A DNA stretch of 64,000 nt from Eledone cirrhosa (Eukaryota). The translations under genes were made by a program, and so were the position numbers. This document shows, one piece after another, positions 1,583-28,316 of the stretch. The DNA lies in contig OZ024745.1 in assembly GCA_964016885.1 (NCBI GenBank), forward strand, positions 118,792,001 to 118,856,000, given 5' to 3'. Position 1 is the first letter of the stretch; each line of letters starts with the position of its first letter. The notes beneath the pieces are model-generated. The model worked only from the letters and a program-made list of their open reading frames with translations. It did not search any database and had not been told where the DNA came from.

Positions 1583-1651
1583 ATTTTATTATGCGCATTT
1601 CAAAAACAAACATCATCAAACAATAATATTTGTGTTTTCATCAGATAAAAC
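1583..1651 (-). ncRNA. Type I hammerhead ribozyme, intact core
   Basis: Minus strand reads GTTTTAT-CTGATGA-[~16-bp stem II]-GAAA-TGCGCA-TA-ATAAAAT. Stem I has 7 bp and stem III is palindromic. Confidence 0.85.
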
Positions 1652-1840
1652 AGGAGAACATGATATGAAGGCTAAAAAACACTTGTTGATAGTGCAGTTT
1701 TAAATCAACATATCACCTCCTACATATATATATATATATATATATATATATATATATATATATCCTGATGGCCTCCAAAAACAACGGTCAATTTTTAAAA
1801 GGGTACGTCAATGTCTATTGATAAAACTGTTATATATTGT

Positions 1841-1903
1841 ATTTTGTCTGATGAAGGCATACCATAATGTAACTTGGTATCCTTGAAATATATATAATGA
1901 AAT
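1841..1903 (+). ncRNA. Type I hammerhead ribozyme, intact core
   Basis: ATTTTGT-CTGATGA-AGGcATACCA..TGGTATCCTT-GAAA-TATATA-TA-ATGAAAT. Confidence 0.75.
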
Positions 1904-2159
1904 AAATATGGTTTTATAAATATAGTTTCCATTTATTAATACCGTATATATATGTATATATATATATATATATATATATATATATATATATATATATATA
2001 TATATATATATATAAGCAAAGGGATATTTAATTTGTTGGTAATTCAACAAATATATATATTTATAACTGATTCGAAGCACTCGACAGTTTTCTGGAGTAT
2101 AATATCAATGATTGAGCCATTAAGGTTTCATTCCTGGATATGTCAATATTTATAAAACA

Positions 2160-2211
2160 AAGATGAGTGTGTACCAAAGTTTTGGTACCCTCGAAATATA
2201 TATAATAGAAT
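2160..2211 (+). ncRNA. Degenerate hammerhead copy in a 308-bp direct repeat
   Basis: AGATGA-..GTACCAA..TTGGTAC..-GAAA-TATATA-TA, followed by nearly the same ~55 nt as 1885-1940. Confidence 0.5.
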
Positions 2212-2826
2212 AAATATGGTTTTATAAATATAGTTTCCATTTATTAATATCATTGATATATATATATATATATCTGCTTAAACCATTTTGTTTGTTTACC
2301 CTAGCGTCCCCTTTATTTACGTGTCCCAACGACTTTTTTTTAGCCGTTGCTCGCACCAACCTGAGGTATATGGCCTTTAATGCGACGAAATGCCTACGAC
2401 GGTTGGATGGCCACTGATGAGGACAAACTTTTTCATATATATATATATATATATATATATATATATATATATATATATATATGTATGTGTTTGCATGTAT
2501 ATGTATATATATATGTATGTGTTTGCATGTATATGTATATATATATATATATATGTGTTGGTGTGTTTATGTATGGATATATATATATATGTATGTGTGT
2601 GTATATATATATATATATGTGTATATATGCGTGTATATATGTATATATATATATATGTGTATATGTGTGTATATGTACGTGTGTGAGTGAGTGTGTGTAC
2701 GTGTGTGTTGTTATATATTCTTATTTATTATTCCCCCCCCCCCCTTTTTTTTTCCTCCAGCCTCACTTTCATATCTGTTATATTTTTGTTTTTCAAATCC
2801 ACTGTCAATAAAGACACCACGATTTC

Positions 2827-2884
2827 TTCATTCTGATGAATGAAAGCAATTTTGGTTGCTTTCAAGAAACCACTGGTAAATGAA
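2827..2884 (+). ncRNA. Type I hammerhead ribozyme, intact core
   Basis: TTCATT-CTGATGA-aTGAAAGCAA(ttttgg)TTGCTTTCAa-GAAA-CCAcTGG-TA-AATGAA. Confidence 0.85.
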
Positions 2885-2934
2885 ATAATTATCTTATGTT
2901 GTTTATTACATAACTATATATATATATATATATA

Positions 2935-24232: not shown

Positions 24233-24825
24233 TACATAGATAGATAAATAGATAGATAAATAGATAGATAGACAGATAACAGTTAGACGGATACGCTACT
24301 GAAGAAAATATGAAAATATCGATTATATTTCTTCACTGAAGCGTGGAATAGCTGTGAGGTTAATGTACTCAACTGCTCACCATATACACGTACGTTCGTT
24401 ATTGTTCGACGATCGGAATCATTCTACGTTCAGTATTGAATAGTCCTGTTTCATTGTTCAGACATATAAACAAATGTAAATATACATATACATATTCATA
24501 CACATACACACATACATAAAGATACACATATATTCCTTTCTCTCTTTCTCTCCCCCCTCTGTATATATATATATATATATATATATAAGTGTGTGTGTAT
24601 GTGTATTGCACAAGAGTGTTGTTTATCTTATTTGTTACGTAGTAACCTCCTCACGATAAGCAGGTCCTAGCGAATCAAATCACTACATGTCAGTGGTTTA
24701 TCCCAGGTAGGTGATAATAAGTGAATTCATATGAATTCATATGCCGAACCACTTCATTACTGGATGGACGTGCATGACCACTGGCATATCACAATGATTG
24801 CGTAACCGCAACAATGATTGCGTAA

Positions 24826-24876
24826 GCATCTGACGATGTCACAGGAGTAACCATGTAACAGCAATATATATAATGC
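24826..24876 (+). ncRNA. Hammerhead with GCAA instead of GAAA (copies near 26280-26330 and 27666-27716)
   Basis: GCAT-CTGACGA-TGTcACAGG(agtaa)CCaTGTaACA-GCAA-TATATA-TA-ATGC. Confidence 0.7.
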
Positions 24877-24937
24877 GATAAACAATTATAGTGATTTAAT
24901 CATCCCGCCTTAAGTACCATTATTTGATTATATATAA

Positions 24938-25128
24938 GGGCGGTGGATTGGCAGTACCGGTAGAGGGTCGGACGCCATGCTTTCCAGCATAGTTACGTCC
25001 CTTTACGATCTGAGTTCAAATCCCGCCGAGGTTGACTTTGCCTTTCATCCTTACGGGGTCGATAAAATAAAGTACCAGTAATGTACTCGGTAATTGCTGG
25101 CCTTGTGCCTAAAGTAGAAACAATTATT
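24938..25128 (+). mobile_element. Family A SINE (copies at 26390-26580 and 27778-27966)
   Basis: Full-length match to the family A consensus. It is flanked by a CATTATTTGATTATATATA-like direct repeat, a putative TSD. Confidence 0.85.
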
Positions 25129-25341
25129 TGATTATATATATATATATATTTAGGTTTGTTGGTTCACCACTGGATAGAATTGGTCATTCCGTATGGTCAA
25201 TCTTGATGTAATATTATGGAGAATACTCAACGTAGTGCAGTTCACCCGTCTTCGTTTGTGTAGTTGGTGGTGTTAATACGGAGTTAATTATAAATAAAAT
25301 AACAGGAGGCTGGACTGGTGTAAATCTTTTAAAAGTTTATT

Positions 25342-25399
25342 ATACTATGATCATTTCAATGACCGTGTTCCGTATGAATCCGGCGATATCATCAGGTAT
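25342..25399 (-). ncRNA. Type I hammerhead, intact core but weak stem II (copies at 26801-26858 and 28184-28241)
   Basis: Minus strand reads ATAC-CTGATGA-[stem II]-GAAA-TGATCA-TA-GTAT. Confidence 0.7.
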
Positions 25400-28258
25400 T
25401 CGATGATACCTGATGAATACCTGATGATATTAGATAGATAGATAGATAGTTGTACCATTGTATTGTTGTACCATTGTATTGTTGTACCATTCTACTGTTG
25501 TACCATTCTACTGTTGTACCATTGTATTGTTGTACCATTGTATTGTTGTACCATTCTACTGTTGTACCATTCTACTGTTGTACCATTCTACTGTTGTAGA
25601 TAGATAGATAGATAGATAGATAGATAGCAGTTAGACGGATATGTTACTGAAGAAAATATGAAAATATCGATTATATTTCTTCACTGAAGCGTGGAATAGC
25701 TGTGAGGTTAATGTACTCAACTGCTCACCATATACACGTACGTTCCTTATTGTTCGACGATTGGAATCATTCTACGTTCAGTATTGAGTAGTCCTCTTTC
25801 ATTGTTCAGACATATAAACAAATGTAAATATACACATACATATTCATACACATACACACATACATAAAGATACACATATATTCCTTTCTCTCTTTCTCCC
25901 CCCCCCCTCTGTATAAAGCGATGAAATGCCTATGACGGTTGGAAGACCACTGATGAAGGACAAACTTTTTCATATGTAACCCATTTGCAACGCCGCAGCT
26001 CCATTATTATCATATATATATATATATATATATATATATATATATATATATATGTGTGTGTGTATGTGTATTGCACAAGAGTGTTGTTTATCTTATTTGT
26101 TACGTAGAAACCTCCTCATGATAAGCAGGTCCTAGCGAATCAAATCACTACATGTCAGTGGTTTATCCCAGGTAGGTGATAATATGAATTCATATGCCGA
26201 ACCACTTCATTACTGGATGGACGTGCATGACCACTGGCATATCACAATGATTGCGTAACCGCACCAATGATTGCGTAAGAATCTGACGATGTCACAGGAG
26301 TAACCATGTAACAGCAATATATATAATGCGATAAACAATTATAGTGATTTAATCATCCCGCCTTAAGTACAATTATTTGATTATATATAAGGGCGGTGGA
26401 TTGGCAGTACCGGTAGAGGGTCGGACGCCATGCTTTCCAGCATAGTTACGTCCCTTTACGATCTGAGTTCAAATCCCGCCGAGGTTGACTTTGCCTTTCA
26501 TCCTTACGGGGTCGATAAAATAAAGTACCAGTAATGTACTCGGTAATTGCTGGCCTTGTGCCTAAAGTAGAAACCATTATTTGATTATATATATATATAT
26601 ATATATATTTAGGTTTGTTGGTTCACCACTGGATAGAATTGGTCATTCCGTATGGTCAATCTTGATGTAATATTATGGAGAATACTCAACGTAGTGCAGT
26701 TCACCCGTCTTCGTTTGTGTAGTTGGTGGTGTTAATACGGAGTTAATTATAAATAAAATAACAGGAGGCTGGACTGGTGTAAATCTTTTAAAAGTTTATT
26801 ATACTATGATCATTTCAATGACCGTGTTCCGTATGAATCCGGTGATATCATCAGGTATTCGATGATACCTGATGAATACCTGATGATATTAGATAGATAG
26901 ATAGATAGATAGATAGATAGTTGTACCATTGTATTGTTGTACCATTGTATTGTTGTACCATTCTACTGTTGTACCATTCTACTGTTGTAGATAGATAGAT
27001 AGATAGATAGATAGATAGATAGCAGTTAGACGGATATGTTACTGAAGAAAATATGAAAATATCGATTATATTTCTTCACTGAAGCGTGGAATAGCTGTGA
27101 GGTTAATGTACTCAACTGCTCACCATATACACGTACGTTCCTTATTGTTCGACGATTGGAATCATTCTACGTTCAGTATTGAGTAGTCCTCTTTCATTGT
27201 TCAGACATATAAACAAATGTAAATATACACATACATATTCATACACATACACACATACATAAAGATACACATATATTCCTTTCTCTCTTTCTCCCCCCCC
27301 CCTCTGTATAAAGCGATGAAATGCCTATGACGGTTGGAAGACCACTGATGAAGGACAAACTTTTTCATATGTAACCCATTTGCAACGCCGCAGCTCCATT
27401 ATTATCATATATATATATATATATATATATATATATATATGTGTGTGTGTATGTGTATTGCACAAGAGTGTTGTTTATCTTATTTGTTACGTAGTAACCT
27501 CCTCATGATAAGCAGGTCCTAGCGAATCAAATCACTACATGTCAGTGGTTTATCCCAGGTAGGTGATAATATGAATTCATATGCCGAACCACTTCATTAC
27601 TGGATGGACGTGCATGACCACTGGCATATCACAATGATTGCGTAACCGCACCAATGATTGCGTAAGCATCTGACGATGTCACAGGAGTAACCATGTAACA
27701 GCAATATATATAATGCGATAAACAATTATAGTGATTTAATCATCCCGCCTTAAGTACCATTATTTGATTATATATAAGGGCGGTGGATTGGCAGTACCGG
27801 TAGAGGGTCGGACGCCATGCTTTCCAGCATAGTTACGTCCCTTTACGATCTGAGTTCAAATCCCGCCGAGGTTGACTTTGCCTTTCATCCTTACGGGGTC
27901 GATAAAATAAAGTACCAGTAATGTACTCGGTAATTGCTGGCCTTGTGCCTAAAGTAGAAACCATTATTTGATTATATATATATATATATATTTAGGTTTG
28001 TTGGTTCACCACTGGATAGAATTGGTCATTCCGTATGGTCAATCTTGATGTAATATTATGGAGAATACTCAACGTAGTGCAGTTCACCCGTCTTCGTTTG
28101 TGTAGTTGGTGGTGCTAATACGGAGTTAATTATAAATAAAATAACAGGAGGCTGGACTGGTGTAAATCTTTTAAAAGTTTATTATACTATGATCATTTCA
28201 ATGACCGTGTTCCGTATGAATCCGGTGATATCATCAGGTATTCGATGATACCTGATGA

Positions 28259-28316
28259 ATACCTGATGATATTACCGGATTAATACGGAACCCGGTCATC
28301 GAAATGATCATAGTAT
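28259..28316 (+). ncRNA. Type I hammerhead, inverted partner of 28184-28241
   Basis: ATAC-CTGATGA-tATtACCGG..CCGGTcATc-GAAA-TGATCA-TA-GTAT, inside the inverted repeat 28130-28370. Confidence 0.75.

Follow-up and report, generated by a model that had tools for sequence, protein, structure and literature searches.

The first 28 kb of a 64,000-nucleotide (nt) stretch of the Eledone cirrhosa genome (assembly GCA_964016885.1, contig OZ024745.1, positions 118,792,001–118,856,000 of the forward strand; the whole stretch is termed the window, and positions are counted from its first letter) are rich in hammerhead ribozyme motifs, raising the question of what these motifs are and why so many lie together. 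An earlier note, made from the sequence alone, had claimed about 19 type I hammerheads from many unrelated families and proposed a special insertion hotspot. Our analysis indicates that the patch is very probably an accumulation of 3′ ends that bear hammerheads, derived from Hydra-type Penelope-like elements (PLEs) and from short tandem elements that contain no open reading frame (ORF), one of which has a conserved fold predicted to be a hammerhead permuted to the order S-G-C. This permuted motif matters more than the archipelago, the interest of which is scale only.

The permuted motif came to light as a lone CUGAUGA at position 2414, with a GAAA upstream (2387) and not downstream. The candidate motif (2323–2424, plus strand), modelled with six helices and pseudoknots, lies in a 5′-truncated copy (2274–2436, plus strand) of a family that we call F13. 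Its order is cleavage block, GAAA block and CUGANGA block (S-G-C), a non-circular permutation in which all core bases are present, and the predicted cut site follows A2370. Helix III pairs the strand before the predicted cut with the strand after GAAA, and helix I pairs the strand after it with the strand preceding CUGANGA. Readings of F13 as a type II hammerhead, a type III hammerhead or a type I hammerhead with a long helix II did not fit. Rfam gave no match on F13, and no second hammerhead was found in the F13 unit.

F13 is a young element: of the 42 matches listed, 40 are other copies with no difference across 151 nt. It is arranged as 512–658-nt units in dimers, trimers and divergent pairs, and three units that were tested contain no ATG-initiated ORF of more than 124 codons. 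Its ends adjoin (TA)n tracts and cluster at ~10–15 and 50–70 nt past the core, about 45 nt apart, a spacing that resembles the PLE ‘tail’ (PMC11167929). Genome-wide, the F13 pattern has 11,999 exact matches, and the reversed-pattern control has none. With GAAA and the core left free, a version of the pattern that leaves out the subfamily of the window copy returned 11,344 matches (control, 13), and both GAAA and CUGANGA were kept in 85 of 100 listed copies. A generic S-G-C descriptor applied to 1.72 Mb of loci revealed no other convincing family, yielding two singletons versus four matches in 2.61 Mb of shuffled sequence. Ten metagenome matches to the F13 pattern lacked, by eye, the F13 helices and were taken as chance.

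The six-helix model was assessed in two sets of F13 copies; relatedness of copies inflates all covariation counts reported here, and those for F13 are not probabilities. After truncated copies and near-duplicates were left out of 57 unique copies, 35 formed the first set. In this set, 93.8% of positions in the model were paired and 11 compensatory pairs were present, the paired fraction being reached by 0 of 500 shuffles and the pair count by 10 of 500. RNAalifold independently recovered the four nested helices. The second set was assembled from 20 divergent-looking stretches among 200 listed rows, with the upstream strands unseen, and retained 22 of 24 copies after two inverted duplicates were dropped. 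Here, 93.6% were paired, with 16 compensatory pairs (0 of 500 shuffles), and the changes in the unseen strands of the most remote subfamily were those that the model predicted. Compensatory changes occur in five of the six helices. Helix I has three and five compensatory pairs in the first and second sets, and an interaction helix that joins the far sides of helices I and II is 96–97% paired, with three and four. A 3-nt link connects the helix I and helix II strands, and the motif as a whole is closed locally by an outer helix that covaries. Directly after CUGANGA, helix II has one pair at most before a four-way junction, its remainder coming from upstream.

These observations make it somewhat probable that the F13 motif is catalytic. 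With the same modest confidence, we read F13 as a young retrozyme family of about 12,000 copies carrying a predicted hammerhead that is non-circularly permuted, active and competent as a monomer, with helix II rebuilt as a four-way junction. Several points weigh against this reading. The strand after CUGANGA forms no plain helix II, and pair 10.1–11.1 is present in 32 of 35 and 17 of 22 copies of the two sets. Helix III is 98–99% paired, with one-sided changes only. A nested alternative is the minimum-energy fold of the window copy and is 92.9% paired across copies. Finally, no autonomous partner for F13 was found.

An alternative, which we regard as unlikely although it is the strongest of those considered, is that F13 is a conserved structured RNA that does not cleave, either because a relic hammerhead has been re-used as a protein-binding or priming signal or because the nested fold is the functional one. 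The interrupted helix II, the loss of pair 10.1–11.1 in 5 of the 22 divergent copies, and the nested fold, which is that of lowest energy for the window copy and has 18 compensatory cells, all fit this possibility, as does the report that dimers of Xenopus retrozymes failed to cleave in 8 of 9 cases (in the accessible part of bioRxiv 10.64898/2026.07.22.740005). However, helices I and III abut UH, GAAA and CUGANGA as they do in the catalytic core, N7 varies, and the unit holds no other hammerhead. The comparison of folds also disfavours the nested one: it has 4 compensatory pairs (a count reached by 239 of 500 shuffles) and 18 compensatory cells, versus 11 pairs and 98 cells for the permuted model.

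A second alternative is that the C, G and S blocks of F13 assemble, in their ordinary order, from three successive tandem units, giving a multimer-dependent type I hammerhead with no pseudoknot in cis. F13 does occur as dimers and trimers, and other hammerheads of this genome appear to be built for dimers. By contrast, the linker lengths of F13 are tightly kept, including the 3-nt link between helices I and II that is described for SGC ribozymes acting in cis (accessible part of PMC10085705), and the outer covarying helix closes the motif locally. We consider this arrangement improbable. In the preferred reading of F13 as a permuted hammerhead, helix III would form in cis with no need of a partner and F13 would cut in cis; the competing nested fold may be an off state, and mobilization would be by a PLE enzyme.

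The type I motifs that surround F13 were each compared with their relatives, and all 19 listed positions proved to be derived from type I hammerheads. Eleven have intact cores (1644, 6063, 6680, 20486, 25395, 26854 and 28237 on the minus strand; 1848, 2833, 6280 and 28263 on the plus strand) and eight are damaged in the core or in GAAA, the relatives of these families being mostly intact (mixed in F7). The intact motifs belong to F1 (1582–1652, minus strand; a Hydra-type PLE terminal repeat), F2 (1840–1904, plus; a PLE end with covariation), F3 (2827–2884, plus; sister of F8), F5 (6272–6321, plus, from a unit of ~438 nt; and 6022–6067, minus, its inverted 5′-truncated mate with a shortened helix I), F6, F9 (20433–20491, minus) and F11. 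The F6 motif (6640–6684) lies in a retrozyme-like 320-nt element present as 1.2 units (6475–6865, minus). Its core at 6680 carries the U3-A8 variant, which is shared by 48 of 48 scored relatives and was already known from Schistosoma (accessible part of PMC4209133).

The damage takes several forms. An F2-subfamily copy (2159–2210, plus; listed at 2160) has its core deleted: the first part of the core is gone, as is the 5′ arm of helix I. An F4 inverted pair (5828–5907) has damage in both halves (5869, minus; 5881, plus), that at 5869 altering both core and GAAA. The F7 motif (7186–7313, minus; core at 7309, given as 7188 in the earlier note) carries U4C and a helix II loop of ~70 nt. F8 (12274–12351, plus; core at 12285) is damaged by G8C, the site being canonical in 12 of 16 relatives, and a second F4 copy (12511–12561, minus; core at 12555) carries U4C and has a core-less inverted mate. 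The remaining damaged motifs are three F12 copies (cores at 24830, 26283 and 27670, plus), which read GCAA where 9 of 10 relatives read GAAA. They lie with three F11 copies (cores at 25395, 26854 and 28237) in a tandem triplication of a ~1.4-kb unit (24245–28274) bounded by (GATA)n, the copies of which are 95–98% identical. The triplication thus accounts for six listed motifs, and it also holds two 5′-truncated F13 copies that lack the cleavage block (25914–26027 and 27309–27422). The last intact motif, F11 at 28259–28316 (plus), is the inverted mate of the copy at 28237. This pair and the F5 pair (6063 and 6280) represent one insertion each; together with the triplication, they reduce the 19 motifs to about 13 insertion events in 11 families. 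The claim of many families stands, but ‘unrelated’ is an overstatement, as F3 (2833) and F8 (12285) share downstream sequence and are sister families.

Other properties attributed to the archipelago are borne out. Two descriptors, A and B, returned 7 and 10 intact type I matches in the window, whereas each of 40 block-wise dinucleotide shuffles of positions 1–28500 returned none. With neither descriptor is anything intact 3′ of 28316, in agreement with the claim that no complete motif follows 28.4 kb; (TA)n tracts thin out there, numbering 35, 22, 27, 15, 5, 1 and 3 in successive 10-kb blocks. The proposed association with (TA)n is seen at all 17 positions checked, each having a (TA)4 run 22–350 nt downstream of the core. 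Helix III is fully palindromic in 41 of 50 motifs (99 blocks, with helix III not demanded; shuffles gave no motifs), and 9 of 11 helix III sequences from the window are unable to fold alone. In F2, for which 39 unique copies were picked by downstream sequence only, the core is exact in 30 of 32 parsed copies and compensatory changes occur in helix II, pairs 2–8 being paired at 0.78 (permutation maximum, 0.73). Adjacent copies of one family on opposite strands diverge in 47 cases and converge in 4 (some loci overlap), and divergent pairing is the known inverted 5′ copy of PLEs. An Rfam scan of the window gave, among the best 150 of 172 rows, a single HH9 match, on the F10 motif at 20982–21026, at 35.7 bits, below the gathering score.

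Beyond the earlier list, the window contains the permuted motif at 2323–2424, an F10 type I hammerhead (20982–21026, minus; core at 21019) with G8A, and a weak motif with its core at 16132 (minus). The last (16095–16136) has a good core, helix II and GAAA, and weak helices I and III; five of the seven relatives seen have a minimal helix III with a 2-nt loop. A stretch at 5490–5545 (minus) has CUGAUGA followed by GAAA at 28 nt and poor stems, with no relative among the loci compared. Elsewhere in the genome (loci given L numbers), a common family has a constant CAGAAGA core (U4A) with intact helices and is possibly a natural core variant (L032:5775, L063:4343, L065:4869, L072:7630, L093:1306 and L152:427). 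Type I hammerheads with a helix II of 60–110 nt (L014:7845, L037:7355, L042:1844, L137:6613 and L155:2565) would escape standard descriptors.

The origin in PLEs or retrozymes that had been proposed for the motifs is supported for six families: F1, F2 and F8 flank Hydra-type ORFs, and F5, F6 and F10 are short tandem units. The element at 8570–12456 (plus strand) is 5′-truncated and frameshifted, with an ORF at ~8590–10570 encoding a reverse transcriptase plus GIY-YIG at the C terminus, followed by a long 3′ region; the F8 motif is its terminal repeat. The ORF is broken in the window, whereas family members elsewhere have open frames of 719 codons. The Hydra-type ORF family contains RWK, DKT, the CxCX5C linker, CxxC and CxH and no CCHH, and the L085 translation has a C-terminal GIY-YIG domain with no cysteine between both half-motifs. 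The F8 motif is found upstream as well as downstream of the ORF in relatives (L085 and L091). In L085 it precedes the ORF, and two copies in L091, which is 93% identical to the window across 2,492 nt, are spaced 3,305 nt apart. Likewise, two F1 copies 3,673 nt apart flank a Hydra-type ORF in L148, and in L024 an F2 copy lies downstream of such an ORF with an inverted copy upstream. On the strength of these sequence features, the family of the 8570–12456 element is assigned to the Hydra clade of PLEs, with a hammerhead in the terminal repeat and insertion at (TA)n. Hydra-type ORF fragments occur in 10 of 87 background blocks. A first look gave 60,654 candidates, 141 of which were scored. A Pfam search gave no match for the window ORF pieces or for the long Hydra-type ORF; at E ≤ 1e-20, the ORF at L085:502–2538 has 1,225 relatives, many of which carry a PF26215 or PF28514 label.

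The three tandem families have periods of 320 nt (F6), 467 nt (F10) and 438–439 nt (F5), contain no ORF and carry one type I hammerhead each, features by which they are classed as retrozyme-like. F6 and F10 have a GC content of 0.33–0.35 and strong predicted folding as circles (z of −4.4 and −9.0). Further retrozyme-like families with periods of 308 and 312 nt (L104:1826–2134 and L032:6263–6575) are absent from the window. The suggestion that the families are mostly non-autonomous is borne out only in part: three families flank Hydra-type ORFs, three are the short ORF-less units and five have neither link. ORFs beside F5 copies were rejected as belonging to F5, being separate insertions, and an ORF beside F9 was rejected as its own because it ends in an F1 motif.

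Some evidence tells against a PLE source. Five families (F4, F7, F9, F11 and F12) have no ORF or unit link, and for F7, F9 and F11 none was found in eight extended stretches. The repeat spacings of 3,305 nt (L091) and 3,673 nt (L148) exceed the size tendency of ‘generally <3 kb’ given for the Hydra clade (PMC8557442, section 11, accessible part), and hammerhead mutants of a Poseidon PLE left insertion in vitro unaffected (PMC11167929).

The family structure, the three ORF-linked families, the tandem units, the divergent inverted pairs, the (TA)n ends, the covariation and the abundance are direct observations. The following mechanism could connect them. The short ORF-less elements were likely moved into (TA)n tracts by a PLE enzyme. 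Judging from the PLE literature, the GIY-YIG endonuclease would nick (TA)n, and reverse transcription would be primed internally, beginning shortly downstream of the ribozyme. It would usually stop early and leave the ribozyme-bearing tip only, often with an inverted second copy. The palindromic helix III would allow type I motifs to fold only as dimers in tandem transcripts, releasing RNA of unit length; solo copies here would then probably be inert. The palindromes and the inability of helix III to fold alone match the published dimer model, in which single motifs did not cleave (PMC4209133). The idea that the motifs could cleave transcripts on either strand is doubtful, given that eight are damaged and that most helix III sequences are unable to make a hairpin by themselves. 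Inverted mates, moreover, cannot pair within one RNA because they are on opposite strands.

To place the window in its genomic context, motifs were counted in 87 spaced 10-kb samples (870 kb) of the 3.0-Gb genome. Descriptor A found 49 motifs, of which ~3 look spurious, for a genome estimate of 1.7e5 (bootstrap 1.1–2.3e5); descriptor B found 67, or 2.3e5 genome-wide. One motif class, counted exactly over the whole genome, has 108,720 matches. Hammerheads in the 3 Gb thus number 1.1e5 or more, with ~2e5 probable, a density above every published count compared. Motif density follows (TA)n tracts (Spearman 0.45), and the flanks of the window hold 12 motifs in 120 kb, about twice background.

That the locus is a special hotspot for insertion, or that its ribozymes form a selected cluster cutting host transcripts, is more improbable still than the multimeric assembly of F13. 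The first 30 kb holds 7 intact motifs where 1.7 are expected, with P about 0.01 (0.04 against TA-rich blocks) for an interval of ~28–30 kb that was picked post hoc. By descriptor A, none of the 87 background blocks reaches the 6 motifs of the first 10 kb, and three intact same-strand F11 copies could dimerize. However, one background block has 8 motifs under descriptor B, the same families occur genome-wide, and the flanks of any family copy hold 43 other-family motifs in 365 kb (1.2 per 10 kb), twice background. The exactly counted class occurs 3 times in the whole window against 2.3 expected (P = 0.41), and the damage to 8 of the 19 motifs also argues against a selected cluster. The first 28 kb is rich in motifs and is no special hotspot; by itself, the type I archipelago is known biology at unusually high density. 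That AT-rich repeat DNA, where stems pair easily and ~3 of 49 background matches look spurious, yields the motifs by chance is refuted by the controls, with virtually no probability left after 0 matches both in the 40 shuffles of the window and in 1.74 Mb of background sequence when shuffled, and reversed-pattern counts of 391 versus 108,720 and 0 versus 11,999.

The rest of the window is also repetitive. Minus-strand pieces at 21137–23860, 15247–15981 and 16581–16889 are presumably broken fragments resembling long interspersed nuclear elements, with endonuclease-like, zinc-knuckle-like and reverse-transcriptase-like parts; Pfam gave no match to them, and the piece at 21137–23860 borders a (GATA)n tract. 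Satellite arrays lie at 32745–38654, 40968–41344, 28851–29383 and 57416–57983, with GC-rich units of 37 and 54 nt and AT-rich units of 19 and 27 nt. A repeat of ~190 nt resembling a short interspersed nuclear element has more than 15 copies in the window, among them 8362–8551, 24950–25138, 51197–51379, 52783–52965, 56370–56551 and 60664–60840.

If the reading of F13 as a permuted hammerhead is correct, it would be the first non-circularly permuted hammerhead in the genome of a eukaryote, with an architecture new to hammerheads that all type I, II and III descriptors miss, and genome surveys with standard descriptors would undercount ribozymes. Non-circular hammerhead permutations were discovered in 2023, in orphan RNAs from the environment for which neither host nor role was known (accessible part of PMC10085705). 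F13 would give them a host and a probable function, the cutting of element RNA to unit length, and would offer natural variants by the thousand, making it testable how permutations originate and whether they make folding as a dimer unnecessary. Further cases may be the ‘half-core’ motifs of Naiad PLEs, in which GAAA stands to either side of CUGANGA. A literature search covering few subscription papers and no closed bioRxiv supplements found no permuted hammerhead in an animal genome; a search covering few subscription papers found no hammerhead census in cephalopods, and the accessible text of an Octopus repeat annotation (PMC13282606) does not mention ribozymes.

The comparisons that follow refer to the accessible parts of the papers cited. 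Like the minimal type I hammerheads of PLE terminal repeats (PMC4209133), the motifs described here have a palindromic helix III and a long, variable helix II, with many families per genome, a predominance of solo copies, and inverted pairs 100–700 bp apart. Unlike those motifs, some families here have helix II regions of 60–110 nt, and the counts there are ~2,000–9,000 per genome, against 108,720 (36 per Mb) here for one class. The ORF-bearing elements share with Hydra clade PLEs (PMC8557442), among which Hydra-1_Obim is listed from Octopus bimaculoides, the RWK, DKT, CxCX5C, CxxC and CxH motifs, the absence of CCHH, the C-terminal GIY-YIG, the (TA)n targets and the canonical hammerheads; they differ in their units of 3.3–3.7 kb and very high copy number. 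Retrozymes without long terminal repeats (non-LTR retrozymes) have been proposed as PLE derivatives (PMC7229834; bioRxiv 10.64898/2026.07.22.740005), and the 2026 preprint argues that retrozymes are non-autonomous PLEs. F5, F6 and F10 resemble them as short, low-GC, ORF-less tandem units with a single type I hammerhead each, whereas they show the marks of PLE insertion directly (an inverted 5′ copy, (TA)n ends and 1.2-unit copies), and F13 differs in holding a permuted motif instead of type I. Axolotl retrozymes reach at most 120,000 copies in 28 Gb, ~1/9 of the density here (same sources).

The closest relatives of F13 in architecture are the type-SGC hammerheads (PMC10085705), a permutation that cleaves in vitro and that was found in metatranscriptomes and, according to that source, in no genome of a known organism. 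F13 shares with them the S-G-C order, all core bases, the 3-nt link between helices I and II, and an extra helix that ties the far sides of helices I and II together. It differs in being chromosomal, with ~12,000 copies in a retroelement, and in that a closing helix and a hairpin interrupt the strand after CUGANGA to give a four-way junction. F13 lacks the uninterrupted helix II formed from the strand directly after CUGANGA, and because its helix II is interrupted by this junction, we regard F13 as an SGC-like variant rather than a member of type SGC.

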